Shown: piece by piece, positions 1 through 57,700 of the stretch | Numbering within the stretch: position 1 is the stretch's first letter | Layout of the letters: each line of letters opens with the position of its first letter | DNA from: a virus | IMG/VR virus record: IMGVR_UViG_3300007644_000002 | Span: 18,715 to 82,714 of that record | Length of the DNA stretch: 64,000 nucleotides | Direction: 5' to 3' (one strand) | Program-made: the position numbers and the translations under genes | The notes under the pieces: model-generated | What the model saw: the letters and a program-made list of their open reading frames with translations, nothing else | Databases searched by the model: none | What the model was told of the DNA's origin: nothing

Positions 1-755
1 ATATGAGTCTCATTATAACCGTGATGGTCTTGAGTAACTAACAACCTCTTAGAGATGACTTGAGTGGTAGGTGTAAGAATACCTTTACCATTCTTGTCAA
101 GCATATTGAACGGTTCGCCAATGTCGCGACAAAAGGTCAAAGTATCACACCCATGCCATGGATGTATAGCAGTATCAGATAACCCCAGATAGTTTACTTC
201 AGGTAGTGCCAGATGAGACGTGGTGTACGTTCTAAACAATCTCTGTAGGGTACAGTACGGGCCGCAGTTGATTGGAAAATTATTATTAACAAGAGTATGA
301 TTCGCCCAATGAGCAAACCGTCTATCTAGGGAATACATCCCCATAAACAAACCTATGTTGGCGTAAAGCATACTGTCCGACGCCTTCGCGAGAGATTTAA
401 ACACCTCGTATCGCTCAGGAATCAGATAGGTATCATGTTCTATAACCCAAAACTTCTCACCGGACTCTGCTTGTTGTCTCATGAGTTCCCAATGAGAACA
501 CATTCCTGCCTTCTCTGTAGGAGAGTGATCGTCCTTCGCGTTACCAGAATGTAGGTCGACTCCCATGAGACTAGCCTTCCAGTTGTAACGGTCTACATGT
601 TCTTGAAACGTATCAGACTCAGGAGTGATAGCATCAAACACTTCTATACCATCAATAAACCCATCGTCAATAGCACATTGAAAAGACTTCCGAGAAATCT
701 CAGCATACTCTTCTGACCTTTCATTACCCTTGATTACTATCTGTCTTACTTTCAA
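1..755 (-). CDS. putative glycosyltransferase (GT25/LPS-biosynthesis-like), partial, runs off window start
   Basis: Not in ORF track; translated by hand from TTG at 755: MKVRQIVIKGNERSEEYAEIS...FDAITP...EKAGMCSHWELMRQ...VIEHD; the GxxSH and EHD/EDD motifs resemble GT25. Confidence 0.55.
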   Translation of the reverse strand, partial: MKVRQIVIKGNERSEEYAEISRKSFQCAIDDGFIDGIEVFDAITPESDTFQEHVDRYNWKASLMGVDLHSGNAKDDHSPTEKAGMCSHWELMRQQAESGEKFWVIEHDTYLIPERYEVFKSLAKASDSMLYANIGLFMGMYSLDRRFAHWANHTLVNNNFPINCGPYCTLQRLFRTYTTSHLALPEVNYLGLSDTAIHPWHGCDTLTFCRDIGEPFNMLDKNGKGILTPTTQVISKRLLVTQDHHGYNETH

Positions 756-33512: not shown

Positions 33513-36500
33513 TTATGCGTCGACGTATGTAGCAGATACAGAAACTACAGAACCAGCTGATACAGAAGTGTATAATAGTTCAACAGTAGAACCAGTAACA
33601 CGTATATCAGTATCACCTAGTAATGCCGCACCAGTGTATACGATACCGTATTCAGTGATGAAAGCGTCAGTTCCGTTGTGAATAACTAGACATTCGCGTG
33701 TTTCGAACTCACTACCATTTGCGACAGTAACGATGTACTTAGCAGTTCGGTAGTTTGCTGAGTTGAATGAAGAAACTACTGTAGCAGAAGTTCCTACAAC
33801 AATATCATTGCCTTGTTCGAAGACTTTGATGTTATCAGCAAGAGTTTCTAGACCAACAGACTTAGGATCTAGTACACCAACCGAGTTAGTAGACTGAGCG
33901 ATAACTACCGCTTGTGTACCAACAGGAATCGCTGCGTTGAAACTGATTGTCTGTGCTTCAGAGTCGATGTTATAGTGTACAGATGGATCCTGTACAACAC
34001 CACCAACAAATACCATCGCGTTAGCTTCTAGAGTTGCGAAGTTTAATGCGAATGTAGTCTGAGCACCGTCACCACTAATAGTCTGACGTTGAGCATTGTT
34101 AAACGCCAGCTGTGTTGGGTCAACAAGTTCGATACCAGAACCATCAGTCTTAACACGAGCAACAAAACCTTCCTTACCAGTGATAGTTGAATCTGTAACA
34201 TCAGTTAGTTCAACGAATGCCTTAGCAGTGTTTAAAGAGAACACACCGTTTGTTACAGAAACATTACCTTCACCAGAAACGTCAGTGACGGATACTGCCG
34301 CGTGAACGCGAGCATTTGTGAAGTAAAGGTTAGTACCATTCGGATCTTCTAGAAGGTCGCTAGTATCAAACTGAGAGATATGCTGTGCAGCAAGACCCGC
34401 GTCCAACTGACCTTTGTTAACTGCGTCAGCATAAACCGTACCGTCTGCAAGACCACCGACCTTGTTACCGGACATGTCTAGATCGCCAGACATCGCATCG
34501 CCAGACTTAGAAACCTTACCGTTAATGTTTGTCTGAAGAAGAGTGTCAGCAGCAGCGAACTCACCACGAATCGCAGAACCCTGTGCCGCACGTGCGGTAA
34601 GTTCCGCAGCAAGACCTGAAGCGTTAGTTGCGATATCAGTTTGGTTCTGAGATACTAGACCAGTAAGAGTACCGTCAGCAGCCTGGAAGGCAGCTACGAT
34701 TTCAGTTAACGAATCCAGAGCAGCAGAATCAGTGTTGGCTTTAATAAAGTCGATCTGAGACTGTAAGTTAGCATCGGCACTTTGACGTGAATTAGATTCA
34801 GTCACAATCGAAGCAGCGTTAATAGAAACGTTAGATGTCAATACACCTTCAGCAGCAAGAGCACGTGATACTTCCGCGTCAAGACTAACCTGTAGGTCAG
34901 AGTCGCCCGCGATTCTAGCAGCAATTTCGTTGTTGATTGAAGTAGTGTTTGCGCCTTCAGCAGCAAGAGCACGAGTCTGTTCCGCTTTAAGAGCAGCATC
35001 CAATTTACTATCAGCATCTTTCAATGTAACAGCAGTGTCTAGGAAGTTAGTACCACTTGGAGCAACATAGTTACCGTTAGCAGCAAGACCAGCACCTGAC
35101 TGAGTCGCAGTCATTTCAGTTTCAAGTACAGTAGCACGTGAACTTAGAGTAGCGTCAGCACTTAGACGGGCAGTTACTTCAGCATCGATTGCGGATTGTA
35201 ATACGGCATCAGCGTTCGTGCGATCAACTACTTCGTCACCAACAATAGTGTCTGCGTAAATCTTAGCAGCTGCTTCAGCGTTGTTCGCTTTAGTAGTTGC
35301 GTCGACAGAGGCAGATGAAAGAACAACCGCATCGGCAGCAATGTAAGCAGAAGTTATGGCAGTATCAGCAGCAGCAAATTCTGAACGGATGGCAGTTTCC
35401 TGACCAAGCGCACGAGAAGATTCAGCTGAGATAGCAGCAGCGTTTGAAAGGATGTCCGCTTCCGCAGAATCTACGCGAGCCTCAATAGCATTAATTTCAC
35501 CGTGTAGTTCGTTCGAAGAACCAACAGCAGTTTGTGAAGTTGTAGCGAATACGCCAGAACCCATCTTAGATTCTAGTGAGTCGATGTCACCTTCGTTAAC
35601 TGTTAAACGACCTGCCTGTAGAGCTTGTTCAGCTTCAACAGCATTCATTTCGCCTTCTAGAACTGTGACTTGACCTTCAACAGCAGTCATCTCACCTTGT
35701 AGTGTAGAAACTTTACCAGCTTCAACATCTAGTTCAGAGTGGATTTCATTGATAGCAGCAGATAGGTTAGTAGCAGTAGTACCTAGAGTGGCAACGCCAA
35801 CTTTAGATTCTAGACCGTCAATGTCACCTTCGTTAACTGTTAGACGACCACCTTGTGCTAATTGCACAGACTCAAGAGTAGTAGCACGACCTTCAAGAGC
35901 AGTTGAGCGTGACTCTAAATCAGTAGCGCGTACTTCAACAGCATCGATGTCACTTTCAGCAGCAGTCAAACGACCAGAGTTGTTATTGATAATGTTCTGG
36001 ATGTCTGAATCAGCACCTTCGAACGCAGCAACGATTTCTTGAAGTGTATCAAGAGTTTCTGGAGAAGTACCGATGATAGCATCAACACGACCGGTTACTG
36101 TGTTAACGTCAGTGCGTAGACCAGACTCAATGCCAGTAGCACGAACGATTTCTGCAGCAAGACCAGATGCGTTAACACCTTCTGCGGCAGTAGCACGAGC
36201 GATTTCAACAGAAAGATCAGAGTCAACACCAGAGATTGATAGGGCATTCGCGTCAACGTCAGTACGTAGAGCAACATCGCCAGCAGCACGTAATCCAGCT
36301 TCAGTTGCGATTGAAGTTGCGTTAACACCTTCCGCAGCAGTAGCACGAGCGATTTCTGCAGCAAGACCAGATGCGTTGACAGCTTCAGCAGCAAGAGCAC
36401 GAGTAGTCTCGACACTAATTGCGGCAGCGTTAGCAGCACCAGTAACAGTGTTTGCGTCTACATCAACACGTAGTCCACTTTCGACACCAGATGCGCGAGT

Positions 36501-39033: not shown

Positions 39034-41295
39034 CTAGTTAACTAAAGTTCCATTTATATCGTAAATATTAACTCTATAATATGAACCATGTTGCCCGTCG
39101 AGTTGGTCTGCATCTGTCGCAGTGTCCGCATTACCTTGTAGATTACCTACAAAAGTCGCAGCTGTAACAGATGAGAAGGTTACATCATCCGAACTGTCAA
39201 TACCGAATTCACCTGTAGATGGGTTGAATGATAACCCATTAGACACAGATAATGATTGTCTTACACGTTCTTCTGTAAGGTATAAGTTATTAACGCCTTC
39301 TTCTATAACATCTGTTGTGGCGTTAGCGTCTAACTTTTGATTAATCCAGTTTTGTACTGTTCCGATAAAGTCGGAGTCGTCACCTAAGGCTGCCGATATT
39401 TCATTCAAAGTATCAAGTACTTGAGGCGCGCCATCGATAAGATTTGATATAGCAATACTAATTGCGCTGTCGGTGTATGTTACCGCAGCGGCGTCTGCCG
39501 TTATTAAGGCGGCAGATATAGCAGAGTTAGTGTAGTTCTCTAAAACCAGTTGAATGTTTGATACTGAACTGTCGGTATAAACGTTTGCTGAGTTTAGTGT
39601 TAGTAAGACTGCCGAGTCTGTATATAGTTCAGTATAATCTTTAGCTAATTGAAGATTTATAACATCTTGACTTTCTGCGTAGTCATTTGCTGATTGTAAT
39701 GTAATCGCATCATTTGAAGACGCATAAGATTTTGCTAATACTAGAGTGTCAGAGTCTTGTTCTACAGCATAAGATTTAGCAGCGAGCAATACGACCGATG
39801 CCGCAGAGTCTGCCGCAGAGTGCGCGTACAACTCGCTATAGGTCTTAGTCGCAATAGTATTATCTACTGAGATGACACCTGTCGCAGAGCTGTAGTCAAT
39901 ACCAGAACCCCCTGACAAGGCCTCCAGTACATTCTGTGGTATTACAGATACGGGTACTGGAAAATTAGACCGTACAGGAGATGTACCACCAAACTGAAAA
40001 TCATATGTAGTGTTAACATTACCAGTAATTTCATTACCATAGTATTTTATTACTACACGGTCAGTTGCGGTGAAATCAGTTGCTGGTAATAACGCATCTG
40101 CGTAAAACTCACCATAAGTATCTAGAGAAATTTTGCTTGTGGTTGATGAAGTAGATAATAAAGTCTCTACACCAGCAGCACTTCTTTTATATACTTCGAA
40201 ATAGAATGATGCTGAACCGCCAGAGCCATCTGGATTAACTCTCACGTTACCAACAGTATGAATGTTAATAACACCAGTGTTACCTATTAATACACCCTGT
40301 TCCGTAGCAAGTGACGCAATCAACTGATCGGCCCCAGATATGGTTCCAGTGTTGATATCTACAGCAACGGCATTAAAATCTGAGTCACCGATAGAAGTGA
40401 CCATCTTCGTGTATATACCGTCAACAGCAATAGTAGTGGTCGTTGGATATAATACAATAGAGGCGTTAAGGGCAGAAATGTCTAGTTTGGTACTATGTAG
40501 TTCATCAATCGCATCCTGAACGTTGGTAGCAATCATGTCACTATCAGGTACATAAGATACGGAGGCAGCACTTATATTCAGTGCTTCAACAAATCCAGTG
40601 TCAACCTCAGTATTGATGGTATTAATAACATCCGCTAGAGTAACAACAGATTCGCCATTAAGACGGAAGTCGCCGAATATATTTACTCCAGCACTATCAA
40701 CATCAATACGGTCACTATCGCGGTATTGGATCTTTAAATCCCCACCGTTGTAACCAAGATGTTTTAAAATCGTGTTGGTACCATTATGATAGAACTTAGT
40801 CTCTTCATCGGTACCAACGGTAAACGAAAATCCATCGTCTAGTATGAGGTCTGCGTCAATGGACGCACCGTCTGAGTTATATGCCGCAACTTGAACTACT
40901 TGATCTACGCCAATAGGAAAGGCGAAGGTTATAGAGGAACCATCAGCTGCTGTATAGTCTATACCTTGGTGTAGTAAAACACCGTTGAGGTATACTTGAA
41001 TTCTTCGGGGGGAAGCAAGGTCGTATGAAAGATAATTTCCGTAATCGTCTGCTCCGGAGAGCGTCAATAGCGTTCCGTCAGACGTGTAGATATACGTATT
41101 GAAAGTACTTACTAAGCCGGATCGTGCGTCACCACCGACTTCAATAACCTGTTCAATACCATCGTACTGTCTTTTTAAGTACAGTTTACCATCTGCGGTG
41201 TTTACTGCTAACTCACCGAGGTTCAACTGCTCTATCGTTGGGACGTTGCCTGCGACAGCACTTCGTCTTAAACGAATATCTACGTTACGTGCCAA
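39034..41295 (-). CDS. tail-fibre-like virion protein
   Basis: IRLRRS..GNVP...L.LGELAVNTADGKLY N-terminus, VYLNGVLL module, LDTLNEISAALGDD, C-terminal YYRVNIYDINGTLVN. Confidence 0.7.
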   Translation of the reverse strand: MARNVDIRLRRSAVAGNVPTIEQLNLGELAVNTADGKLYLKRQYDGIEQVIEVGGDARSGLVSTFNTYIYTSDGTLLTLSGADDYGNYLSYDLASPRRIQVYLNGVLLHQGIDYTAADGSSITFAFPIGVDQVVQVAAYNSDGASIDADLILDDGFSFTVGTDEETKFYHNGTNTILKHLGYNGGDLKIQYRDSDRIDVDSAGVNIFGDFRLNGESVVTLADVINTINTEVDTGFVEALNISAASVSYVPDSDMIATNVQDAIDELHSTKLDISALNASIVLYPTTTTIAVDGIYTKMVTSIGDSDFNAVAVDINTGTISGADQLIASLATEQGVLIGNTGVINIHTVGNVRVNPDGSGGSASFYFEVYKRSAAGVETLLSTSSTTSKISLDTYGEFYADALLPATDFTATDRVVIKYYGNEITGNVNTTYDFQFGGTSPVRSNFPVPVSVIPQNVLEALSGGSGIDYSSATGVISVDNTIATKTYSELYAHSAADSAASVVLLAAKSYAVEQDSDTLVLAKSYASSNDAITLQSANDYAESQDVINLQLAKDYTELYTDSAVLLTLNSANVYTDSSVSNIQLVLENYTNSAISAALITADAAAVTYTDSAISIAISNLIDGAPQVLDTLNEISAALGDDSDFIGTVQNWINQKLDANATTDVIEEGVNNLYLTEERVRQSLSVSNGLSFNPSTGEFGIDSSDDVTFSSVTAATFVGNLQGNADTATDADQLDGQHGSYYRVNIYDINGTLVN

Positions 41296-42972: not shown

Positions 42973-43329
42973 TTACCTTGTTACCGAAGGAGATACTTTA
43001 ATTTTCCCCTCTAAAATACGCTCTACTACGGGATATCCGTTCGCATCGATATAGGTTATTTCGACATCATACACGTACCTACCACGGGTAGATAGGGCAT
43101 CAGTCTGCTCATTTGTGAGGGATAATACTAGGATACCGTCGGATGACGGGTCAGCGACCATCGCAGAGAACTCGATAGTGTCTTCGTCTTTACTGTTGAA
43201 GTTCCGCTTCATTTTGGCGGATACAGTATAAGCACTTAAATCTTTCACAGAACCATCAGCTTCAGTAAGCTCTATCTGAAAAGCAATATCTGTGCCTTGG
43301 TCTATTGTAAAATCTTCGTAAGCTGCCAT
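42973..43329 (-). CDS. small virion protein (BppU-N/Ig-like fold possible)
   Basis: IDQGTD, DLSAYTVSAKMKR, LSLTNEQT, GRYVYDVEI, RILEGKI.VSPSVT. Confidence 0.65.
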   Translation of the reverse strand: MAAYEDFTIDQGTDIAFQIELTEADGSVKDLSAYTVSAKMKRNFNSKDEDTIEFSAMVADPSSDGILVLSLTNEQTDALSTRGRYVYDVEITYIDANGYPVVERILEGKIKVSPSVTR

Positions 43330-43412: not shown

Positions 43413-44123
43413 TTATTCAGCAGACGCAATGTCTTCCAATACTAGATCACGTAGAGCATCTGAACCATCAGTAGTATCAAATACATAAGATACTGTACAA
43501 CGCCAGTCAGTATCGGCAGCAGCTGCGTGATAAAGAAGGGTTTCTGGTTCACGGTAGTGTCCGAAGTATGCGGCTTTACAAGTCCACACGCCGGGCTTGT
43601 CTTGGCAACGAACAACTTCCTTAGTTTCAGGATGAATGTAATCAAAGTAACCAGAACCATCTCCAGAATAAGAGAAGATTAGGTTGAAGCCCGGAGCGTT
43701 AGCATTATTGTGCCAAGAGATATATCCGCCTGGCGGGTATACTGCGCACAATGCGTTATGTTTAACTGATAAGAAGTTCATCATCCTATCATTCAACTCA
43801 CCTAGGTGTCTAGTGAGGTCTCTTTTAAAGATAGGGTCAGCATCACCCTCAAACATTGAGTGAGCCCGTTCGGATAACTTGAAGTTATATCCTACTAGTT
43901 GGTCAGGGAACCCTTCATGAGCAGTCTTCTGGTCAAGAATTTCGTTCATATATGGCGCGCCGACGTAGTAACTACGCTGGCGAATATGTTCTGCTCCATT
44001 CAAGTGGCAGTTCTTTTCAAAACCAGCCCAAGTATGAAGTTTAGCATATTCCCCAAGTATCTCCAGAAGTTCTGGATTATTAACGTCGATATGCTTTAGA
44101 TATTGGTCGTTTACCTGTGTCAT
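43413..44123 (-). CDS. 2OG-Fe(II) oxygenase-like protein
   Basis: YPPGGYISWHNNANA, LYHAA.....R; paralog of 15688..16335. Confidence 0.6.
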   Translation of the reverse strand: MTQVNDQYLKHIDVNNPELLEILGEYAKLHTWAGFEKNCHLNGAEHIRQRSYYVGAPYMNEILDQKTAHEGFPDQLVGYNFKLSERAHSMFEGDADPIFKRDLTRHLGELNDRMMNFLSVKHNALCAVYPPGGYISWHNNANAPGFNLIFSYSGDGSGYFDYIHPETKEVVRCQDKPGVWTCKAAYFGHYREPETLLYHAAAADTDWRCTVSYVFDTTDGSDALRDLVLEDIASAE

Positions 44124-44848
44124 ACGATTGGTGTGTCCTTATTTAAACCAGCAGAGAAGTGACGTAAAATCACGGGCCCTGTCTCAGGTTTAGTTCTTGC
44201 CCAGTTGAAGGCATTGTAATAATTCCATCTCAAGTCGTCATCGAAGATACCAACTTTGAGATCCTTATATTTTTCTTCTTTCTCGGTCAACCACCAGAGG
44301 GAGAACTGATCCCAAGACTTTAGAGAATCAATATAACCTTCGGGCCACCAAGTATCATTCATTTGCTTGTATGTTAAATCCCACCAATCCTGCATAAATT
44401 CGCGGACGATTGGTTTAGTCATATCATACAAACATACCCCACCACAAAGAGTAAATTTAGCCATACCTTCTGGTGTGGAGAAATCACGTTCCGCATAAAT
44501 GTAGTCGCGATCATCAGTCAGTTCAGAGAATACCACATCGTAGTCTTTCATCTCATCCCATACCTTGATGATGTCTTCGTGCTCACATTCCATGTCAGCA
44601 TCAATATACATTGTTATGTCATATGGCGAACGTGCCATACCCCATAACTTAGCACGATAATGGTTGTCGCAGATAATAACATCATCGGCAACATCATAAC
44701 CACGTTCGTCAATATATTTTTCTTCTGTCACGAGACAGATTTTACAATCCTCATAGAAGTCTCTTAGACTTTCTGCGAGGTTAAGAGCATACAAATAAAA
44801 GTTAGGTTTATTTGATGCTACAATTACGAACCCTTTGGTCTTCTCCAT
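44120..44848 (-). CDS. glycosyltransferase (GT-A fold, GT8/nucleotide-diphospho-sugar transferase-like)
   Basis: RAKLWGM..SPYD.TMYIDADM, GGVCLY, WDQFSLW, RWNY. Confidence 0.75.
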   Translation of the reverse strand: MEKTKGFVIVASNKPNFYLYALNLAESLRDFYEDCKICLVTEEKYIDERGYDVADDVIICDNHYRAKLWGMARSPYDITMYIDADMECEHEDIIKVWDEMKDYDVVFSELTDDRDYIYAERDFSTPEGMAKFTLCGGVCLYDMTKPIVREFMQDWWDLTYKQMNDTWWPEGYIDSLKSWDQFSLWWLTEKEEKYKDLKVGIFDDDLRWNYYNAFNWARTKPETGPVILRHFSAGLNKDTPIV

Positions 44849-45297
44849 TACTCAGTCCCTTCCAGAGATTCCTGTAGAATGAGAATAGAGTACAAGTCTA
44901 CTTCGATACGAGACTTCGCACGACGTAACTTTCCTTTTAATTTGCGGTTCTTAGAGGCTTTAATCTCATCAACCTCAAATGCTTCTAATTTATAATTGAA
45001 GAGTTTCTCTAACTTACGCGCCTTCTGGTGTTCTAGTTCGCGCTGCTTTTCTTCTTCTTGCTCGGCATTTTTGCGTGTTACCCGATTAGTTGTTTCTTTA
45101 TCAATGTTATCTTCACCTACAGACCCGATGACTTCATCAAACAACTCATTTGGATTACCGTCTTTATCTACACGGTTCAGTAACATTACTTGCCTTGTTA
45201 CTCTTCCAACATCATCTTCCATTTCTAGGATACAGTTCAACTTATCTTTTGCGTCTGTTTCCCAAAAAGCATTGTCCATCCACTTTCTGTAACTCAT
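44848..45297 (-). CDS. hypothetical protein, charged/helical
   Basis: 149 aa, coupled to the glycosyltransferase start; own sigma70 promoter upstream. Confidence 0.7.
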   Translation of the reverse strand: MSYRKWMDNAFWETDAKDKLNCILEMEDDVGRVTRQVMLLNRVDKDGNPNELFDEVIGSVGEDNIDKETTNRVTRKNAEQEEEKQRELEHQKARKLEKLFNYKLEAFEVDEIKASKNRKLKGKLRRAKSRIEVDLYSILILQESLEGTE

Positions 45298-45422: not shown

Positions 45423-48400
45423 TTATGCGGTTCTTACATATAAAGTATATGCTTCAACTGTCGAGTAAGACGATTGAATTGTGGTACCAACATAATCACC
45501 AACAAATGCGCGAGAGTAATTACCAGCAAAGTCTCTTGAGTAATTACCAGTGAAGTCACGAGCATAGTCACCAGTGAAGTCGCCAGCATATGATGATGTA
45601 CGAACCCGAGTGTAATCAGCAGAGTATGCTGAAGTACGTAGTCGCGAGTAAGCAGACACTCGAACTCGGCTGAAAGTATCAGTTGAGTTACGAGTATATT
45701 CACCTAAGAATCCACGAGTGTAATTACCAATGAAGTTACCGGCGTAAGCAGAAACACGGTTACGGATATAGTTGCCCGCAAATGTTCTTGCGTAGTTACC
45801 AGTAAAGTCACCTACGAATTCAGTTGTGTACGCACCGGCATATTCGCCAGCAAATGTTCTTGCGTAGTTACCTGCGAAATCGCCTGCGAAATCACGAGTA
45901 TAGTTACCAGCGTAGTCTCGTGAGTAGTTACCCGCAAATGTTCTTGCGTAAGTACCAGCGTATTCACCCGCAAAATTGCGTGAGTAAACACCAGTGTATT
46001 GACCAGAGAATCCACGTGAGTAAGTACCAGTATATTCACCAACGAATCCACGTGAGTAAGTACCAGCGTATTCGCCTACAAAACCACGTGAGTAAGTACC
46101 AGTATATTCACCAACGAATCCACGAGAGTAAGTACCAGTGTACGACGATGGACGTGTACGGGAATAAGTCTCTACACGAGTTCTTGAGAAGTCACGAGCA
46201 TAGTTACCAACATAAGAAGTAGCATACGCACCAGTGTATTCACCCGCAAAATTACGTGAGTAAGTACCAGCATAAGCAGAAACACGAGTACGGGCATAAG
46301 CAGAAACACGAGTTCTCGCGAAATCACGACTATAGTTACCAGTATAAGAGGTAGCATATACGCCAGTATATTGTCCAGAGAAACCGCGTGAGTAAGTACC
46401 AGCATATTCGCCAGCGAAACCACGAGAGTAAACTCCAGTATATTGACCAGAGAAGTCACGTGCGTAGTTACCGACGTAGTTACCCACAAAGTCACCGACG
46501 TAATTACCGGCAAAGTTACCCGCGTAGTTACGAGCATATTCGCCAGCAAATGTTCTTGCGTAGTTACCCGCAAAGTCACCGGCAAAGTCAGTTATACGAT
46601 CACGAGTGTATGCGCTACCACGAGTACGGGCATAAGCAGAAACACGAGTACGGGCATAAGCAGAAACACGACTACGTGTAGATGTACGAGTATATTCACC
46701 AACGAAGTCACCAGCAAAGTCACCTGCGAAGGCACGAGCATAGTTACCAACGTAGTCGCCAGTGAAAGTAGTTGCGTAGTTACCAATATAGTTACCGGCA
46801 TAGTCACCCGCAAAGCCGCGAGCATAGTTGCCAACGAAGTCACCAGTGAAAGTAGTTGCGTAGTTACCGACGAAGTTTCCTGCGAAGTTAGTTACACGAT
46901 CACGAGCAAAGTCACCAACATAGTTAGTAACACGTGTACGAGCAAAGTCACCAACATAGTTAGTAACACGTGTACGAGCAAAGTCACCAACATAGTTGGT
47001 GATGCGTGTACGAGTAAAGTCACCCACGTAAGGAGTAACACGTGTACGAGAGTATGCTGATGGACGAGTACGTGTTGATGTACGTGTTGATGTACGAGCA
47101 TATTCACCAACGAAGTCACCAACGTAATTACCGACGAAGTCTCTTGCGTAGTTACCAACGAAGTCGCCAGCATAACCACGAGCATAGTCACCAATGTAGT
47201 CGCCAGCGTAGTATCCAACACGAGTATAATAGCCGGTAGCAGTAAAATCAGTCACGCGGTCACGTGTGTAATCTTCATTCGCAGCACGAGCACGTGTGTA
47301 ATCTAATGTTGCGGCACGAGCACGTGTGTAATCTAATGTTGCGGCACGATCACGTGTATATGTTTCTGTTGCGGCACGAGCACGTGTGTAATCAACGGTA
47401 CGCGTATAGTTACCGGTATACACTGGGGTACGAGTATAGTACTCTGCTGCAGATACGAGACGGGTACGAGTATAATCAACTGTTGCTGTTGATGTACGAG
47501 TATAAGAAGTAATGAAGTACCCTGTTACACGCGTGTAGTACACAGTCAGGGTGTAGAACTGCCAATATCCTTGATATCGCGCATAAGTTCCGGCAGTGCG
47601 TGAGTAAGCCGCCGTCGCCGCGCTTGAACGACTATAGTTACCAATATAAGATGTCGTACTAGTATAGTTACCCATATAAGATATCATGGTATTGTATGGG
47701 TTTGAATAACGGACATAGTCTCCGATAAATGAGGGAGCACGAGTGTATGTATCAACTCTAGTATAGTTACCAGTATATGTTACGGGACGACTATAGTTAC
47801 CAGTGTATGTTACGCCACGAGTATAGTTACCAGTGTATGTTACGCCACGAGTATAGTTACCAGTGTATGTTACAGGTCGGAGATAGTTACCGACAAAGTT
47901 TCCTGCGTAATACAATACACGAGTATAAGCTAGCGTACGAGTTGAAGTCTGAATTGCATTACGAGCGTAAGCTGAGTAACGAGTACGTGTAGAAGTACGT
48001 GCGTAAGCAGAACCACGGGTACGAGTATAATCAGTTATGCGAGTACGGGCATAATTACCTACGAAGTCACCAGCATAGTCGCCGACATAGTTTCGGGCAT
48101 AATCACCTACAAAGTCACCAGTAAAGGTAGTAGCATAATTACCTACGAAGTCACCAGTAAAGGTAGTCGCGTAGTTACCTACGAAGTCGCCAGTAAAGGT
48201 AGTCGCGTAGTTACCTACGAAGTCACCAGTAAAGGTAGTAGCATAATTACCTACAAAGTTACCCGCAAAGTTAGTTACACGATCACGAGCAAAGTCACCA
48301 ATATAGTTAGTGATGCGTGTTCTGGCGTAAGCTGAATAACGAGTTCGTGTTGAAGTTATGGTAGAATCGCGAGTAAAGTCACCAACATAGTTAGTGATGC

Positions 48401-50450
48401 GTGTTCTGGCGTAAGCTGAGTAACGAGTACGAGCAGATGTACGAGTAGATGTACGAGCATAGTTACCAACGAAGTCGCCAGCAAAAGCACGAGCATAGTC
48501 TCCGACAAAATTTCTAGCATAGTCTCCGACAAAATTTCTAGCATAGTTACCGACGAAGTTACCGGCAAAGTTAGTTACACGATTGCGAACATAAGCAGAT
48601 ACGCGAGCTCTTGAGTAAATACCAGCGAAATTAGTTACACGGTCACGAGTATAGTCAGTGATACGAGTTCTTGTGTAATCAGCAGAGTATGCTGAAGTAC
48701 GAGTTCTCGAATAAACACCAGAATAAGTTGAAACACGGTTACGAGCATATGTTCCAGCGTAAGCAGAAACACGATTACGTGAATAAGTACCTGAGAACGT
48801 TGAACCACGAGCACGAGTAAACTCTCCGGTGTAGTTTCCTACAAAACCGCGAGTATAGTTACCGGCAAAGTTACGAGCATATGTTCCGGCGTAAGCAGAA
48901 ACACGTGTACGACCATATGTTCCTGAGAACGATGAAGGACGTGTACGAGTAAACGCACCAGCATACTGGCCAGAGAATGAACGAGAATAGTTACCTACAA
49001 AGTCTCGAGCATATGTGCCTGAGTAAGTAGAAACACGTGTACGAGCATAAACACCAGAATAAGCAGAAGAACGTGTACGAGCATATGTGCCTGCGTAAGC
49101 AGAAACACGGTTACGCGAGTATGTTCCCGCATAAGAACTTACACGGTTACGCGAGTATGTTCCTGAATATGAGGAAACACGAGTACGAGCATATGTGCCT
49201 GCGTAAGTTGATACACGGCCGCGAGTATAGGATGACGGACGAGTACGTGTAAACACACCAGTGAAATTAGTAATACGGTTACGAGCGAATGTAGACACAC
49301 GTGCGCGGGCATAGTAACCAGTAAAGTTACCAACAAATCCCTGTAACCTAACACGAGTGTAGGTTGACTGACGGTTCAATACATATTCGCCAGTAAATGT
49401 ACGAGAGAAGTTAGTTATGCGGTCACGTGAATAAGTTGACTGACGGTCACGAGAGTAATTACCCGTGAAATCTCCAACATATTCTCCAGCGAAGTTGCGG
49501 CTATAGTTGCCAGCAAAGTCACGAGTATAATTGCCGACATAGTTGCCAGCGAAGTCTTGAGTACTAACGCGAGTAGAAACCCTACTAAATGTTGAGTTAC
49601 GGTCACGAGTATAAGAAGAAATACGAGCACGAGTATAAGCACTATTACGTGTTCTAGCATATGAAACTTCTGCGGTATTTCTTTTAGTGTTTAGTGCGGT
49701 ACCTACAGCCTTCCAAGTGCCTGGGGCAGTTGGTACACCTTGTGAAGATGAACGCAATTGATAAGAACCAATGTTGCCTGCGGTTGCGCGTAGTGTTTTA
49801 ATTCTCTGACCAAGAGTGAACTGGATTTGATCATCAGTCATTTCTCGGAAACCAGTGAAGTTACCGCTGACATCATATGATGTTGAAACTGGACGAACCG
49901 CAGCAATTGCGGTCATATTGTTTCTTATATAGATACTGTATTGAGTTTCGGTTCCATCTCCCCTTGTATCCTTGAATACGTTAGGAATAAACTGAATATA
50001 GTCTACGCCAGGCGAAGATGCTGCTAATCTGAAAGTACCTACGTAATCATTTTGAGCAAGATTACTTAGAACTCGATTAGCAAGATTATTCAAATCACCA
50101 TCTACCATTTCGTAGAAGCCGGGATTTGAGGTATCGTAGTATCCTACTGGACGGACAAAGTTCGCACCTACTTCATTCGCGGTTCCACCATTTTGATATA
50201 ACGTAGTAGTGGTAGAACCGGAAGTGATTTGAGAAGCAGGGTGCGTACCCGTTGCTTCATTGAAAAAAGTATCAATAAATGTACCAATACTCATATCACC
50301 GGTCAAAGTAATTTGACCCGTATCACTTGAAGGAGAAGATGCTAGTGCTTGTCCCACCGCATACGCAAGATAGTTCTCTTCCGTAGGAGTGAATTCCTGT
50401 AGGTCACCATTCGAATTTTTAATTTTTAATGGGATGCTCGATGCTGACAC
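45423..50450 (-). CDS. giant Tyr/Arg/Thr/Gly repeat protein with mirror-complementary halves (putative beta-hairpin fibre)
   Basis: 1675 aa ORF; about 263-aa N-terminal domain, then about 1390 aa of 4/8/10/12-residue repeats with an aromatic residue roughly every 4th position; GAGAG RBS and two late promoters upstream. Confidence 0.8.
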   Translation of the reverse strand: MSASSIPLKIKNSNGDLQEFTPTEENYLAYAVGQALASSPSSDTGQITLTGDMSIGTFIDTFFNEATGTHPASQITSGSTTTTLYQNGGTANEVGANFVRPVGYYDTSNPGFYEMVDGDLNNLANRVLSNLAQNDYVGTFRLAASSPGVDYIQFIPNVFKDTRGDGTETQYSIYIRNNMTAIAAVRPVSTSYDVSGNFTGFREMTDDQIQFTLGQRIKTLRATAGNIGSYQLRSSSQGVPTAPGTWKAVGTALNTKRNTAEVSYARTRNSAYTRARISSYTRDRNSTFSRVSTRVSTQDFAGNYVGNYTRDFAGNYSRNFAGEYVGDFTGNYSRDRQSTYSRDRITNFSRTFTGEYVLNRQSTYTRVRLQGFVGNFTGYYARARVSTFARNRITNFTGVFTRTRPSSYTRGRVSTYAGTYARTRVSSYSGTYSRNRVSSYAGTYSRNRVSAYAGTYARTRSSAYSGVYARTRVSTYSGTYARDFVGNYSRSFSGQYAGAFTRTRPSSFSGTYGRTRVSAYAGTYARNFAGNYTRGFVGNYTGEFTRARGSTFSGTYSRNRVSAYAGTYARNRVSTYSGVYSRTRTSAYSADYTRTRITDYTRDRVTNFAGIYSRARVSAYVRNRVTNFAGNFVGNYARNFVGDYARNFVGDYARAFAGDFVGNYARTSTRTSARTRYSAYARTRITNYVGDFTRDSTITSTRTRYSAYARTRITNYIGDFARDRVTNFAGNFVGNYATTFTGDFVGNYATTFTGDFVGNYATTFTGDFVGNYATTFTGDFVGDYARNYVGDYAGDFVGNYARTRITDYTRTRGSAYARTSTRTRYSAYARNAIQTSTRTLAYTRVLYYAGNFVGNYLRPVTYTGNYTRGVTYTGNYTRGVTYTGNYSRPVTYTGNYTRVDTYTRAPSFIGDYVRYSNPYNTMISYMGNYTSTTSYIGNYSRSSAATAAYSRTAGTYARYQGYWQFYTLTVYYTRVTGYFITSYTRTSTATVDYTRTRLVSAAEYYTRTPVYTGNYTRTVDYTRARAATETYTRDRAATLDYTRARAATLDYTRARAANEDYTRDRVTDFTATGYYTRVGYYAGDYIGDYARGYAGDFVGNYARDFVGNYVGDFVGEYARTSTRTSTRTRPSAYSRTRVTPYVGDFTRTRITNYVGDFARTRVTNYVGDFARTRVTNYVGDFARDRVTNFAGNFVGNYATTFTGDFVGNYARGFAGDYAGNYIGNYATTFTGDYVGNYARAFAGDFAGDFVGEYTRTSTRSRVSAYARTRVSAYARTRGSAYTRDRITDFAGDFAGNYARTFAGEYARNYAGNFAGNYVGDFVGNYVGNYARDFSGQYTGVYSRGFAGEYAGTYSRGFSGQYTGVYATSYTGNYSRDFARTRVSAYARTRVSAYAGTYSRNFAGEYTGAYATSYVGNYARDFSRTRVETYSRTRPSSYTGTYSRGFVGEYTGTYSRGFVGEYAGTYSRGFVGEYTGTYSRGFSGQYTGVYSRNFAGEYAGTYARTFAGNYSRDYAGNYTRDFAGDFAGNYARTFAGEYAGAYTTEFVGDFTGNYARTFAGNYIRNRVSAYAGNFIGNYTRGFLGEYTRNSTDTFSRVRVSAYSRLRTSAYSADYTRVRTSSYAGDFTGDYARDFTGNYSRDFAGNYSRAFVGDYVGTTIQSSYSTVEAYTLYVRTA
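45490..49661 (-). repeat. degenerate coding tandem repeats (12/24/30/36-nt units)
   Basis: e.g. YATTFTGDFVGN x4 at about 48110-48255, YSRGFVGEYxGT-type x5 at about 45950-46140, 30-nt units at 47270-47395 and 47760-47890. Confidence 0.9.
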
Positions 50451-50623: not shown

Positions 50624-51121
50624 TTAAACTTCTTGAGGCCAAACAACTTTATCTACGGAGTCTACTACGGTTAGGTCTACTGTATCAGTGATATCTCTTA
50701 ACGCTTGACGGTAATCAATGTATTGTTGTCGTTTTTCAGCTGAAAGTGGAGCATCAGGTAGCATAGCCCAATCAGTATGGAAAAGTTTCATATCTCTTTG
50801 AGCGCGAATCTCGCCCTTGATAACTTCTTTGTCCCATGTCCACTTCGCGGGTGTTACACTTCTATCCCAGAATGAATGATAATTAGGTCGACGGTCAACA
50901 GTCAACCATTCGTCCAATTCGTCATCCCATACATGAGTGTTTACAAATTCTTCTAATGCTACACTACCGGCACATTCATAGATACGGTGAATTATATGAC
51001 CATTACGGTCAGTAACACCATCTTCGGGATAAATGCCATTATCTAAATCCGTTCTTTTAATCACTCCATTTTCATCGTGAAGTGCTACTATAGGGCTAAC
51101 CCCTCTTTCATTGTCGCTCAT
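50624..51121 (-). CDS. tail fibre assembly chaperone-like protein
   Basis: C-terminal IRAQRDMKLFHTDWAMLPDAPL...YRQALRDIT...VWP motif. Confidence 0.8.
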   Translation of the reverse strand: MSDNERGVSPIVALHDENGVIKRTDLDNGIYPEDGVTDRNGHIIHRIYECAGSVALEEFVNTHVWDDELDEWLTVDRRPNYHSFWDRSVTPAKWTWDKEVIKGEIRAQRDMKLFHTDWAMLPDAPLSAEKRQQYIDYRQALRDITDTVDLTVVDSVDKVVWPQEV

Positions 51122-53093: not shown

Positions 53094-53133
53094 CGTGTAT
53101 AATCTACTTGTTGTCCAGAGGGATAATATACTA
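53075..53133 (+). promoter_or_regulatory. antisense-oriented sigma70 promoter element (copy 2)
   Basis: TTGACA-17-TATAAT then CTACTTGTTGTCCAGAGGGATAATATACTA, matching 13101-13161. Confidence 0.65.
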
Positions 53134-54558
53134 GCCTAAGAATCCCATTATAACTCTCCTTGTGTTATTACCATCATAGATGCTGATAACGTTATTAGTG
53201 AGTTCCATTCTTTCACCAGTTTGGCTAGTACCTATATCTAGTGATCCTGTAACTTTGGCATTCGATAATAATACTTCATTACCATCAATCGTGAATGGTT
53301 GAACTTCATTGTTATTTGCGTTAACAAATCTGAAAGTGTCAGCAGTAAGTGTGAAGTCAGCAGTTGCGCCATCATTTCCAAACTTAATACCCGCAACTCG
53401 TGGATTAGCTTCTGTTCCCGCAAGAAGGTCTAGTGTCCACAATGCGGTAGTAGTACCAGCACTATCAACAAACGCAGAGAACTCTTGTCTTACTGCGGCA
53501 ATATCAGAATCAATCGCGGCATTTAAGTCTGTTATCAGTTCTGATCGAACCGAAGTCACACGGTCGTCTACTGTCTCAATCTGAGTAACAAGATCACTAG
53601 TTGCTTGAGCAACCGCAGTTGTTGTGATATTACCTTGTAAATCTCTAATGAAAACAGCATTGTCTAGTTGTAGAGTTTTTGCTGAAAGCGATGTAACCTG
53701 ACCACCATTATATGATACAGAAGTCGCGAGAAGTTCTCGTGCGTCAGTCTCCGCATCTATTCTAGCACCAAGATCAGAATCTAATATAATTAAGTCGGTT
53801 TGTAACTCAACGACCTTACCCGCTTCAACAACTAACTTGTCACTGTCCGCATCAAGTCGAGCATATAAATCCTCAAGACCTGCTGCCAATGCTGCTTCAA
53901 TTTGTTCTGGGGTAAACTCAATACCACCGGCAATAAACTGATCCAAAGTTAGACCAATTGAATCCAATCTCGATATAGTGGTAACAATACCATCACTGTT
54001 CACGTCGGTACGTGTTGTTAACTGACTTATACCTGAAGTGTTTAACTGAATTAAGTCGCCAAGGTCACTGTTAGCTAAAAGTAAACTGGATTCCACTGAG
54101 TCGATAGCACCAGCAAGAATATGTATCTCATCACTGTTCGCATTGACTCTTGATATGAGAGTATTGGTGGCATTCGCAATTGCGTCCGCAAGTAGGTCAG
54201 AGTCCACACCATCCAGAACCAAGTTTTCGATGGATGCGTTAGTCTCCGTGATAGCTTGCGATAAACTAGTTATCCCATCACTATTAACATCAACTCGTGA
54301 TGTCAACTGAAGTAGTCCACTTGCGTTCGCTGCGATATCAGAATCCAGATAACTTACATCAACGCTAAGGTCGAACTGGTCTAGATATTCTTGGTTAATG
54401 ACCGATAGAAAGTAATCTGAGTCAAGGATACCATTAACAATAGTAGTGAGCTCATTAACATCAATAGAGCTACTATCTACTAACTGAAAGTTGTCATTAA
54501 TTTTTAAAATCGCAGCGTTAATATTATCTGCTAGATTAATTAACTGTATATTACTCAT
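53131..54558 (-). CDS. coiled-coil fibre with lambda-J/DUF1983-like C-terminal domain
   Basis: Heptad region with about 10 [DN]SD motifs; VAGIKFGNDG..ADFTLTADTFRF, PFTIDG.EV, GERMELTNN.ISIYD.NN.RRVIMG. Confidence 0.65.
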   Translation of the reverse strand: MSNIQLINLADNINAAILKINDNFQLVDSSSIDVNELTTIVNGILDSDYFLSVINQEYLDQFDLSVDVSYLDSDIAANASGLLQLTSRVDVNSDGITSLSQAITETNASIENLVLDGVDSDLLADAIANATNTLISRVNANSDEIHILAGAIDSVESSLLLANSDLGDLIQLNTSGISQLTTRTDVNSDGIVTTISRLDSIGLTLDQFIAGGIEFTPEQIEAALAAGLEDLYARLDADSDKLVVEAGKVVELQTDLIILDSDLGARIDAETDARELLATSVSYNGGQVTSLSAKTLQLDNAVFIRDLQGNITTTAVAQATSDLVTQIETVDDRVTSVRSELITDLNAAIDSDIAAVRQEFSAFVDSAGTTTALWTLDLLAGTEANPRVAGIKFGNDGATADFTLTADTFRFVNANNNEVQPFTIDGNEVLLSNAKVTGSLDIGTSQTGERMELTNNVISIYDGNNTRRVIMGFLG

Positions 54559-54790
54559 TGGTTGCCTTACCCTCTATTAGTCGAAAAAGTAATTCTTTTA
54601 TTTCTGACACATCTTGCTTTAAACCCACAACTTCTTTTGAAAGCGTGTTGATAGTGTCATCCTTTTCTTTTATTACTTTTTGCTGTGCCCTTGCTCTGGT
54701 TATTTCGGTTCTGTTTGTATTTAGGATGGCCCCTGATCGACCATCCTTTACTAAGTTATTATACCCTTCAACCCGCAAACGTTGCGACAT
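54551..54790 (-). CDS. small coiled-coil hypothetical protein
   Basis: VEGYNNLVKD..SGAILN, C-terminal LKQDVSEIKELL heptads. Confidence 0.7.
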   Translation of the reverse strand: MSQRLRVEGYNNLVKDGRSGAILNTNRTEITRARAQQKVIKEKDDTINTLSKEVVGLKQDVSEIKELLFRLIEGKATNE

Positions 54791-57700
54791 TATATTACCA
54801 ACGCAATAGCGCGAAGGTCGGTTATCGTCGGTGATTTAGATGAGTTCGTTGCTGACATAACAATCTTGATCTGGAAGACGTTAAACGCATCAGCTTCTAC
54901 GGTGTACTCATAATCACGATATGTTTCTGGGTCATCATCAGTAGGTAGAGGTGAATCTATAGTCACCTGATTCCAACCAATAACCGGAACACCTTCGCCA
55001 TCAACTTCGTACATCGCGTCTTCGGTTAATGAAGTTCTGACATATACATCAAACTCCACACCAACATCACGATGCGCAGCGAATATGATTTTAAGCCCCA
55101 CCGAAGATTCATCAACCGCAACTGGTTTGGTGATGTGTTGAGCAGCGTCCGATCCGTCAATAACATTCTCTAATGTAATCAATGATACACGTTGTAAGTC
55201 TACGACTGGAGACACTTTAGAGTCACCAGTAGTTAGGTTTAGCGTGAGAGATAACGTATCCGCAGCATTCGCTTGTGTTGCTATGACCGCCGGATAATCG
55301 TTCACGTTCAATTCGTTCAACACCACTTGATGAGACTTAGTAGTATAGTCTAGTTTCTGTGGTCTAGTTGTACGAGTGGTACCATAAGAATCTCCTAATG
55401 TTTTTTCAATAGTAGAATCAATTGAAGTCATGTTAGGGATGAGAGTCTGTACCTGTGGTATAAACTGGTCGAACATTACCTGTTGGGACGCAACAACATT
55501 AGAACCACCGCCTACCGCAGACGCAGTCGCAGCGACACCCGTGTTGATAGTGTAACCTGCCCAAGTAGGATTGATTACATTGTGGTATCCATTAATTGAA
55601 TCAGCAATAACACCACCTACCGCACTCGCTACACCTGAAATCAGCACACCGTCATTATTAGAGAATCCGTGTCCTTCGTGATGTACGAATACAATTGAAG
55701 ACCCTAGGGTAGTTTCGAATGGATTAATGTCCAATGTAACTTTAGGTAGTTCACTATTCTTCAGTTCCAGTACACCGGCACTTTCAAAGTCCGCACGGTA
55801 TAAGTTAAACATCAAATCTTTAGTCTGATCGGGAGTCCAAGTAGAACCGTTCTGCGACAAGAACAACGAACCTAATGTAGGCTGACGTGATACTCGTGCT
55901 GAACGACTTTGCCCGACGACATATTCGTATGTTTGCGCAGTGTATACATTGTATTCTACTGACTCCGCAAGAAGTACTAAAGCATACTCTTCGCCAGAAG
56001 TCAAGTAAATTGGTTCATCGAACTCAATAGTAGTTTTCCCTGCTACAACATCTGACATCTCAGTTGTGTTATCAAAAGGAACAACATTAATATTCGAAGG
56101 ATTGATAAACTTAACAGAGCCTGGGACAATACGTGAAGTAGGAACGCCGTTCTCTACTGGACGAATTTGTACTTGCATTGGAATAACAGAGTCCTTACTC
56201 TCTACAAATATGTCTACCTTAGTAATAAAGAGTCCGTTTGGATTCTCTACTTGGTCTACAATAAATGTCTGTGCGAGAGGATCTCTCCAATAAGTAGTCT
56301 CTATAAGTCGAGTACTACGTACAGTTCTCTGTACTGTTTCTAAAGTACCGACTGCCGTGTACCCTGCGCGACTTACCGCAGTTGCTACTGACTCATCTGA
56401 GTTGTTGACATCTAACAATTTAAATTCTTGTCTTCCTGTACGGAAATTAATTGTCGGAGTATTAGGTAAGAAGAAACTGCCCGCTAACTCACCTTCTGAG
56501 TTTGTAGTAAGAATAGACTTACCACCTAGAGCAGTAGGGTATTCGGTCGCACTAATGTACTCACTACCATATTCTGTAGGATCGTCCGAGAAGTTAGTGA
56601 ATGTTGGTTCTTGACGAACCCAATCGTTAACAACTTTGTTTCCAAATACTGGATACATTTGAGTGTTAGGACGTAAACCTTGAACTCGGAAGTTAATCTT
56701 ACGTGAACGCATGAACGGAATAATTTCGATGTTCATTACGCGTCGACCAATATACTCAGTAATAGTTCTAGATGTTGTCGAAGACTGTACTCTGAACCGA
56801 CGACGAGTGAAGAACGAAGGGAGATACGTGTTAATCCGACGAACTACTCGCTGCATAATGTCTGGTAAGAACTTAGTCTCGACCCACTCATCCGTTGATG
56901 GTGATAGAACCAAGTGACCGTTTTGAGTGATTACCGCAAACGGGTTAATATTCATTATACCAGTAGCCAACTCTTGACTAATCATAGCAACGTCAGTAAA
57001 CGGTAGTGTTACAATGTCACCTTTTCTAGTGATAGTGTTAGTCAAGTCGGTTGCGTCGTACTTTAAACGTACTGCTTGTTCACGGAATGATGCCCCCATC
57101 AATCCTTCAGGATCTACCGATGCTCGGTAGTCTGGATGTTCTATATCAGAGTAATCGAATGTATTAAAGTTGTCCGCAATAAACCCTGCTTTGGTTCTAT
57201 TAAGACCCTGCGCATCAAGTACATCCAGAGAGTTTGTGTTGCTCTCTAGGAAACTCAGAGAGGTGATTTCATAAAGGTTCTCTATACCTTCTTCAAGTTT
57301 ACCGATGTCTTTCATCGTATAACGCTTGTTAGAAATCTTTGTTGTGATTACATCACTAGTTTGGTGACTATATGCCCCCAATTCAACCTTAAATAATGGT
57401 AGCGCACCTACTGGAACGATAGGTTCTTTTGGTTGTTCTGACGCCTGACCACTAATAACCTGAAGTTCCCCGAATCCAATATCTCCTCGACTATCAGTCG
57501 CATTTACGACCAACATATCGATACGTGGACTGTAATATGAAACTGAAGGCACTGTTATAGAAGACGCATTCTGTGGTAAAGGTGTTACTGTAAATGTGCT
57601 GGAAGTAGCGACCGATGGTCTAAAGTCTAAACTATCACCTAGTTTTACTACAGAACCATTGGTTAGCGTATGTGATGGAATATCTTGAATATCCATACCA

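Follow-up and report, generated by a model that had tools for sequence, protein, structure and literature searches.

How can one protein consist of two halves that mirror each other, with one kind of repeat block exchanged for the other, and what would such a chain look like? This question is raised by a giant gene on the minus strand at positions 45423..50450 of the window, the 64,000-nucleotide (nt) stretch of viral DNA that was analysed here (IMG/VR record IMGVR_UViG_3300007644_000002, positions 18,715 to 82,714). The gene starts with GTG and encodes 1675 amino acids (aa) plus a stop codon, and the N- and C-termini of its product are conserved among homologues. A previous inspection of the letters alone, hereafter the sequence-only reading, had described two types of repeat blocks whose order in the N-terminal half is reversed in the C-terminal half with the types exchanged, and had proposed that the chain folds back on itself. 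Our analysis confirmed that the mirror complementarity of the two arms is real, and the protein is probably an intramolecular fold-back, fibre-like protein of a T4-like (Kyanoviridae-type) phage, with its arms antiparallel and in register through a block code.

From its N-terminus, with all parts on the minus strand, the protein comprises a non-repetitive base domain (residues 1-263, 49662..50450) made of three similar units, each a helix with a long beta hairpin, of which the third is interrupted by the arms; an N-arm (residues 264-912, 47715..49661) of tetrapeptide units that form runs of A, runs of B and additional [YF]xGx units; an irregular, aromatic-rich tip (residues 913-1004, 47439..47714), which contains the symmetry axis; a C-arm (residues 1005-1654, 45489..47438), in which the block order of the N-arm is reversed and A and B are exchanged; and a C-terminal tail of 21 aa (residues 1655-1675, 45426..45488), which ends in the family-wide motif YTLYVR and supplies the last strand that base unit 3 otherwise lacks. 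A strict four-residue rhythm runs through the repeat region (residues 264-1654), aromatic residues being spaced by 4 residues 178 times and by 8 residues 49 times, and nearly all of this region is built from the three tetrads [YF]xRx, Rx[ST]x and [YF]xGx. In an A block, the tetrad [YF]xRx precedes Rx[ST]x; in a B block, [YF]x[RT]x precedes [YF]xGx. The composition of the region is strongly biased, with T, Y, R, G and A making up 62%, and its single Trp sits in the tip.

For the mirror test, blocks were counted as A=[YFW]xRxRxxx, which gave 52 blocks, and B=[YFW]x[RT]x[YFW]xGx, which gave 44, and the track with A set to +1 and B to -1 was correlated with its own mirror image over all sums i+j of residue positions. 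The results showed one sharp minimum, -227, located exactly at the centre of the repeat region (i+j=1917-1918), while all other sums gave values from -105 to +72. This anti-diagonal signal was attained neither in 2000 shuffles of single block tokens (mean minimum -67, standard deviation 11) nor in 2000 shuffles in which whole runs were kept (mean -113, standard deviation 22, lowest -204). Each arm consists of 13 alternating runs, which read A3,B2,A2,B1,A10,B2,A2,B2,A8,B3,A3,B5,A2 in the N-arm and, backwards, B3,A3,B1,A1,B10,A2,B2,A2,B6,A3,B4,A5,B2 in the C-arm, so that the run lengths agree nearly one for one. A gapped token alignment of the two arms contained 42 A:B pairs and not a single like-with-like pair. 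The profile of local repeat periods, which uses no block definitions and was compared with trimmed ends and Pearson normalisation, was likewise mirror-symmetric (r=0.58 at a sum of 1918; best value elsewhere 0.23). The scores of local gapped alignment separated the orientations poorly (mirror-swap 92.9, direct-swap 73.1, direct-same 129.8), because any A array fits on any B array; therefore we relied on ungapped and indel tests instead.

The same symmetry was visible in the tandem arrays. Tandem Repeats Finder reported five pairs of arrays, all on the minus strand, which have equal periods (36/36, 36/36, 30/30, 24/24 and 84/84 nt), similar copy numbers and mirrored positions. In the N-arm, an array of A block plus Gly unit at 49006..49201 (period 36 nt, 5.4 copies) has its partner in the C-arm array of B block plus Gly unit at 45948..46142 (period 36 nt, 5.4 copies); the array at 48097..48275 (period 36 nt, 5.0 copies) is partnered by that at 46886..47050 (period 36 nt, 4.6 copies), and the array of 10-residue units at 47760..47873 (period 30 nt, 3.8 copies) by that at 47261..47393 (period 30 nt, 4.4 copies, also 10-residue units). 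The two remaining N-arm arrays, at 48492-48554 (period 24 nt, 2.6 copies) and 48282-48470 (period 84 nt, 2.2 copies), correspond to 46619-46676 (2.4 copies) and 46706-46868 (1.9 copies), respectively. The coordinate sums of the five pairs range from 95147 to 95176, the sequence-only reading having given 95150-95160; its axis at nt ~47575 corresponds to residue 959, and the five block correspondences that it had listed all agree with the residue and nt numbering. Its figure of about 695 residues per arm holds if the arms are measured to the axis, whereas the regular arms have only about 649 (N) and 650 (C) residues.

Is this arrangement a property of one protein or of a family? We found 242 related contigs in IMG/VR, and a tblastn search of 50,697 phage records gave phage C48C1 (Kyanoviridae) as the only cultured relative, in which the gene has 3347 codons and is annotated as hypothetical; the other match, one low-complexity Enterococcus phage sequence, was regarded as spurious. 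The proteins of the fetched IMG/VR loci, of C48C1 and of the window made up a set of 54 unique complete homologues of 420-3347 aa. The axis test was applied to the window protein, 21 complete proteins of the first IMG/VR scan (duplicates included) and 34 of the second, and the anticorrelation minimum lay at the sum of the first and last residues of the repeat region, +0 to +6, in the window protein, in 21 of 21 proteins of the first scan and in 32 of 34 of the second, the two exceptions being L067 (+52) and L082, which has no A blocks. Proteins that passed the test span 773-2282 aa, and among the relatives as a whole the arms measure from about 50 to about 1000 residues. In C48C1 the C-arm is interrupted by five globular domains, for which reason the protein does not pass the ungapped test; despite these domains, it runs A3,B3,A42,B3,... 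from the N-terminal side and B3,A3,B39,A2,... backwards. When exact mirrored overlaps were pooled over 51 proteins, A stood opposite B 1028 times, A opposite A twice and B opposite B never, and the offsets of mirrored blocks were almost exclusively multiples of 4. At the level of single tetrads, [YF]xRx never occurs opposite [YF]xRx.

Representatives with at least 4 A and at least 4 B blocks (n=21; some of them may duplicate IMG/VR proteins) had the axis within 4 residues of the centre in 10 cases, and all 7 of those with a strong minimum (-24 or lower) did so. The A/B-type proteins L054, L067 and L080 missed the centre in the periodicity test. Charge complementarity as a general rule of the family was considered and rejected, since the relative P0008 is acidic in both arms.

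The strongest evidence for coupling of the arms is the occurrence of matched insertions and deletions (indels). Only two indels, each of 60 aa, separate L034 from L035, which are otherwise 97-99% identical; these indels lie at 524-583 and 1282-1341, with a mirror sum of 1871. L006 and L007 differ by 176 aa in each arm, and the 876 columns between the two differences are 90% identical. Equal indels were also observed for L007/L002 (176/176 aa), L013/L018 (32/32 aa), L013/L024 (28/28 aa) and L010/L028 (72/72, 20/20 and 28/28 aa at mirrored positions). The window protein itself differs from L005 by 16 aa at 749 together with 16 aa at 1169, and by 20 aa at 761 together with 20 aa at 1157, the positions summing to 1918 in both cases. 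Among 38 nearest-neighbour pairs, 31 had indels of at least 12 aa, and in 16 of the 31 the outermost indel was identical in both arms. The net length changes of the two arms were correlated with r=0.87 (0.96 without one pair with domain insertions), a value reached in none of 10000 permutations. Altogether, the arms are shown to be coupled in antiparallel orientation.

A second class of indels looks like the exchange of tip and inner arms as cassettes: in L013/L018, L013/L024 and L039/L041 the outer arms are 93-98% identical, while the inner arms and the tip are 60-72% identical and are flanked by equal indels. The large insertions that affect one arm only, in C48C1, L060 and L065, are non-repetitive globular domains, which could bulge out and leave the pairing unbroken.

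Some further features of these insertions were noted. One type of globular domain recurs as a C-arm insertion (C48C1, there L001, at ~2020-2160; L060 at 1235-1630; L065 at 1120-1344), and in C48C1 about 75 residues at the end of this domain are present twice in tandem, which may be a real duplication or an assembly artefact. The C-arm of L060 has an extra GLEYA/PA14-like piece (E 6e-5 and 8e-4, below threshold), and the inserts of C48C1, L013 and L065 matched no Pfam family.

The two ends of the chain were also found to belong together. In an alignment of 30 members, three base units can be recognised. Each contains a helix motif and a strand, together with a hairpin whose final strand resembles Y-x-[IL]-Y-x-R, and in unit 3 this final strand is the C-terminal tail. 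Comparison of the units by hhalign gave a probability of 94% (E 1.1e-7) for unit 2 with unit 3, 45% for unit 1 with unit 3 and 0.3% for unit 1 with unit 2; the tail aligned, at the expected place, with the final strand of unit 2, though the match was weak (E 0.044, 10 columns). The motif of the tail recurs in 109 of 156 other proteins of the family, many of the remainder apparently being fragments. AlphaFold2 models were made of the whole proteins L082 and L036, and the base was predicted with a predicted local distance difference test (pLDDT) score of mostly 85-98 in both. For L082, pLDDT was 85-98 for residues 1-262 and 90-97 for residues 401-420, with strands at 243-265 and 394-418; for L036, the base was confident and the last 20-30 residues had pLDDT 83-96, with strands at 249-275 and 819-848. 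These results show that the base domain is split, the arms being inserted in the last hairpin of a three-unit base that is completed by the tail. Together with the central axis, the ratio of 1028 A:B to 2 like-with-like overlaps and the matched indels, the split base strongly supports the antiparallel pairing with fold-back of the chain that the sequence-only reading had put forward.

With respect to the fold of the base, the best matches of its model in VIA-align were 8b6v_A (Z 6.3), 2qp2_A (6.1), 3tow_A (5.5), 6sb1_A (5.1) and 6u23_A (4.4). All five are beta-prism domains of the MABP type, aligned over 112-121 residues within the model range 40..420, which includes the tail, at 7-12% identity. 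The threefold pseudo-symmetric prism of this type, known from the MABP domain of MVB12B and the C-terminal domains of MACPF/perforin-2, would fit the three sequence units of the base. In the metagenomic relative P0002, LamG_3 (E 2.5e-23) and FG-GAP domains, the latter as eight repeats (E 3.6e-90), lie at ~275-900, inside the base and immediately before its third unit; judging from this sequence, the base evidently tolerates large adhesin-type insertions.

The turn between the arms is hypervariable among the homologues. In other clades and in C48C1, the axis falls mid-way in a hypervariable domain of about 100-130 aa, where the window protein has its short aromatic-rich segment. Both the position and the variability of the tip are as expected of a distal binding domain, which it may putatively be.

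How, then, might the chain be folded? In the reading that we favour, a globular three-unit base would carry some 1400 residues at the site where its third beta hairpin would otherwise have a short loop; the chain would run out as the N-arm, turn at the small tip and return as the C-arm, and its last 21 residues would complete the base. The arms would be antiparallel and in register over their whole length, with the register read out by the two-type block code, an Arg-rich A block always facing an aromatic/Gly B block and a [YF]xRx tetrad never facing another. On one face of the paired beta ribbon, the most economical arrangement would be a ladder of Tyr/Phe rungs with one Arg side chain between successive rungs, each Arg resting on a Gly or Ser of the opposite strand; cation-pi stacking and the packing of large over small residues would hold it together. 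Length would be tuned in evolution by copy-number changes of tandem arrays, selection would retain only those variants in which both arms change equally at mirrored places, and tips with inner arms would also be swapped as cassettes.

The exact register was approached through the side chains. With i+j equal to first+last+1 or +3, no Arg:Arg pairs arise, and the aromatic, Arg and Gly positions of both arms come to lie on one face. In register +1, position 5 of an A block (Arg) is opposite position 5 of a B block (Phe/Tyr); like blocks would there give Arg:Arg or Phe:Phe, which would explain the exclusion of like blocks. Column covariation in the outer arms was also highest at +1, if weak (0.076 vs 0.056 and below). 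We infer the intramolecular pairing, the geometry of the beta ribbon and the chemistry of the ladder from these data. An extended two-stranded ribbon of about 215-230 nm (650-695 residues x 0.33 nm) is plausible but unproven. Thus, of the huge antiparallel hairpin pictured by the sequence-only reading, the antiparallel pairing and fold-back stood, and the extended beta ribbon of ~230 nm and the exact cross-strand code are beyond what could be proven. Only tentatively do we suggest the boldest form of the idea, a monomeric 'protein duplex': a two-stranded antiparallel beta ribbon of hundreds of residues and up to some 200-300 nm, zipped by aromatic and Arg side chains, in which A pairs only with B and which would evolve like an RNA stem, by matched gain and loss of repeats in the two strands and by swapping of the apical binding tip as a cassette.

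A number of results weigh against this fold-back ribbon or limit its scope. The A blocks are missing from most distant members of the family, and 5 of 7 distant proteins without A blocks gave no mirrored periodicity in the trimmed test: no clear mirror was seen in P0003, P0005, P0009 and P0011, and P0004, whose peak is 24 off centre with r 0.27 vs 0.21 elsewhere, was counted with them, while P0007 has a mirrored periodicity (r 0.70, 21 off centre). The absence of A blocks and of mirrored periodicity in distant members implies that the A/B code is a dialect of a subfamily. The homologue pairs share ancestry and members, so that the indel counts given above are not counts of independent events, and compensation is imperfect: in 12 of the 31 pairs the net change of one arm departs from that of the other by more than 16 aa. 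One-sided indels, which the sequence-only reading had held to speak against pairing, were indeed found in a few homologues, namely a 28-aa repeat indel in the C-arm of L047/L049 and two 14-aa indels on one side of L069/L079; the large cases are the globular insertions described above. The beta-prism match is modest, Z scores of 4.4-6.3 being in the range that VIA-align calls common for unrelated folds, and Foldseek found no match of the base model to the PDB at E<=0.001. The arms of the AlphaFold2 models (L082 263-396; L036 272-820) had pLDDT below 50 and almost no strands, which leaves the ribbon geometry without direct support; this failure speaks neither for nor against a ribbon. Finally, we know of no solved precedent for an isolated two-stranded ribbon of such length.

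Which other structures could account for the data? One is antiparallel pairing across chains, in which the N-arm of a subunit would bind the C-arm of a different subunit within a domain-swapped dimer or a higher oligomer such as a six-strand trimer, and the tail would complete the base of a neighbour. Sequence covariation is blind to the difference between contacts within and between chains, phage fibres are mostly trimers according to PMC3004832, and the failure of the monomer AlphaFold2 models on the arms would fit a need for partners. We nevertheless consider it unlikely, for the base is already a three-unit pseudo-symmetric domain in one chain, the monomer models put the tail into the base with pLDDT above 90 in L082 (90-97) and of 83-96 in L036, the complementarity extends up to the short tip with no spacer, and an intramolecular hairpin is the simpler closure.

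Another explanation retains the antiparallel arrangement and makes each arm a compact beta solenoid of its own, with 8-12 residues per turn, the two being packed side by side with A and B as complementary surfaces (basic versus neutral or acidic) in a rod of a few tens of nm. In its favour, periods of 8 and 12 residues with Gly at constant positions are reminiscent of solenoids, the beta helix of T4 gp5 contains octapeptide repeats (PMC3004832), and A-rich stretches are more basic than B-rich ones. However, the single-tetrad rule and the phase modulo 4, kept over more than 600 residues, are predicted by residue-by-residue pairing of strands and are stricter than the matching of surfaces requires; and units of 4, 8, 10, 12 and 16 residues are freely mixed as long as the other arm matches. 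No Pfam repeat family was matched by the window protein, C48C1 or L060, a result with which a solenoid not described so far is still compatible. A pair of solenoids thus appears quite unlikely.

Far less credible is that the symmetry is a relic or product of nucleic acid, that is, of an inverted DNA duplication or of an RNA or DNA hairpin with both sides read in one frame. Paired coordinates that sum to a constant would be in keeping with it, but the sole inverted pair found was 21 nt at 76%, base complementarity at sums of 95140-95174 was 0.17-0.33 against a background mean of 0.248 and a maximum elsewhere of 0.354, and the three antisense frames contain 67, 157 and 88 stops. Moreover, it follows from the genetic code that the in-frame reverse complement of a Tyr codon is read as Val or Ile, so that A cannot encode B on the opposite strand. 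A DNA or RNA palindrome was rejected on the grounds of the single inverted pair, the background-level complementarity and the antisense stops; the symmetry is confined to the protein level. To a chance arrangement of a low-complexity repeat protein with uncoupled halves, which the very biased composition might suggest, we give practically no credence, as the observed value was not attained by either kind of shuffle, the same axis rule is obeyed by dozens of homologues that differ in length, and indels are matched between the arms.

The needle of the T4 long tail fibre protein gp37 is reportedly made of outgoing and returning strands, an observation said to go back to Bartual et al. in 2010. 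The tip of gp37 (collar, needle and head) is similar in one respect, that the chain runs out to a distal binding domain and back and the tip is not the C-terminus. The residues linked to host range, 938-955 of 1026 aa, are located in the head domain (PMC5221442 and PMC3004832). In gp37, however, the fold-back is a short segment of an intertwined trimer, whereas here it would be the whole fibre of about 650 residues per arm, with a block code and a single-chain base, and Pfam and PHROGs gave no sequence or family match to gp37.

The SMC, MukB and Rad50 proteins resemble the window protein in having a head completed by both chain ends, long antiparallel arms and an apex domain (PMC2141774 and PMC5526789), and in both designs the two arms must stay matched in length; PMC5526789 speaks of a '49 nm coiled-coil arm'. 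They differ in that their arms are alpha-helical coiled coils in DNA-acting ATPases, while here the arms consist of Tyr/Arg/Gly/Thr tetrads and the gene lies in a phage tail-fibre module. The arms have no helices in the L082 and L036 models and no heptad signal, and no ATPase family was matched in Pfam. The likeness to SMC proteins is an architectural analogy, not membership. With regard to chemistry, the Trp/Arg layers of the thrombospondin type 1 repeat, as given in PMC2173040, are akin to the ladder proposed for the aromatic/Arg face of the arms. That repeat is eukaryotic, three-stranded, disulfide-bonded and about 60 residues long; the arms extend over hundreds of residues, have Tyr/Phe for Trp and no Cys, and are known from sequence alone.

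The genomic context was then considered. The window corresponds to the structural region of a T4-like myophage and contains genes for sheath, terminase, portal, major head and baseplate wedge. The giant gene lies in a tail-fibre module, with a gene for a Phage_tail_APC chaperone upstream (50624-51121) and a tail-tip fibre-like gene at 53131-54558, and the gene order around it is the same in C48C1. The window protein itself matched 0 Pfam families at E<=0.01 and 0 PHROGs at E<=0.001, so neither database offered a tail-fibre, tail-spike or fibre-chaperone profile for it. Among the relatives, P0002 has LamG_3 and FG-GAP domains in its base, both above threshold, and L060 a GLEYA/PA14-like piece, below threshold, in its C-arm. 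We infer a virion fibre or adhesin with a distal binding tip, with which the swappable tip, the tail-fibre module and the domains of the relatives would fit. The phage appendage named in the sequence-only reading is thus in harmony with the module and the tip, its role in the virion being unproven.

Directly downstream of the giant gene, three open reading frames (ORFs) that overlap or abut one another occupy 43413-45297 on the minus strand: 44848-45297 (149 aa), 44120-44848 (242 aa) and 43413-44123 (236 aa). They follow the giant gene in 64, 64 and 60, respectively, of the 88 fetched loci and in C48C1, even beside the most distant homologue of 420 aa, and the 242-aa protein is 84-97% identical where the base of the giant protein is 57-85% identical. 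The 242-aa protein has a weak GT2 match (E 0.0054), and the 149-aa and 236-aa proteins have no family; Pfam at E<=1 and a sequence search of the PDB gave nothing above threshold for these genes. The three may be a dedicated set for assembly or modification of the fibre.

How widespread and how new is this architecture? A search of 1.84 billion proteins placed the base domain in 330 representative clusters, 261 of them with E<=1e-10, and it was N-terminal in every case; across the family the arms are 13-26% aromatic, and A blocks occur in a subset only. No name for the family was found in Pfam, PHROGs or the ESM Atlas, which gave only unnamed viral clusters (at 0.80, with no model). Word searches of the open-access literature found no account of the family, of C48C1 or of such an architecture, and an account in a subscription journal is possible. 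As a fold-back, the protein very probably represents a paired stalk of a kind not described before. Compensatory change, the classic proof of RNA pairing, is encountered here at the level of whole repeat blocks of a protein and as a near-absolute rule. If the arms form a paired ribbon, this would to our knowledge exceed in length every regular intramolecular beta pairing proposed so far and amount to a new design of a single-chain fibre; it would mean a length-tunable, ultra-thin phage adhesin and a programmable pairing code for long beta ribbons, simple enough to be tested and reused in protein design. It also suggests that T4-like cyanophage-type viruses possess a length-variable appendage that has gone unrecognised, one with exchangeable tips and lectin-like decorations, which would bear on host recognition in aquatic viruses. 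The natural homologues of 420-850 aa make the question of structure directly testable.

Several other features of the module were observed. A 118-aa ORF at 42973-43329 on the minus strand has a weak match to an LtfC-like beta-sandwich (E 0.0041, below threshold) and is conserved in 58 of the 88 loci, and in C48C1 the annotation of its counterpart reads 'L-shaped tail fiber protein assembly'. Internal motifs are common to three large fibre-like proteins rich in Ala, Thr and Ser, which are encoded on the minus strand at 30013-33441, 33513-38543 and 39034-41295, and the last ~15 residues of the 1142-aa and 753-aa members are nearly identical, which suggests, from the sequences compared, a paralogous fibre family with a common terminal module. 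Between the baseplate wedge and fibre genes, a 1637-aa protein encoded at 54790-59703 on the minus strand contains DUF4815 (E 3.4e-55) and has a very strong match to PHROG 358, a group of unknown function.

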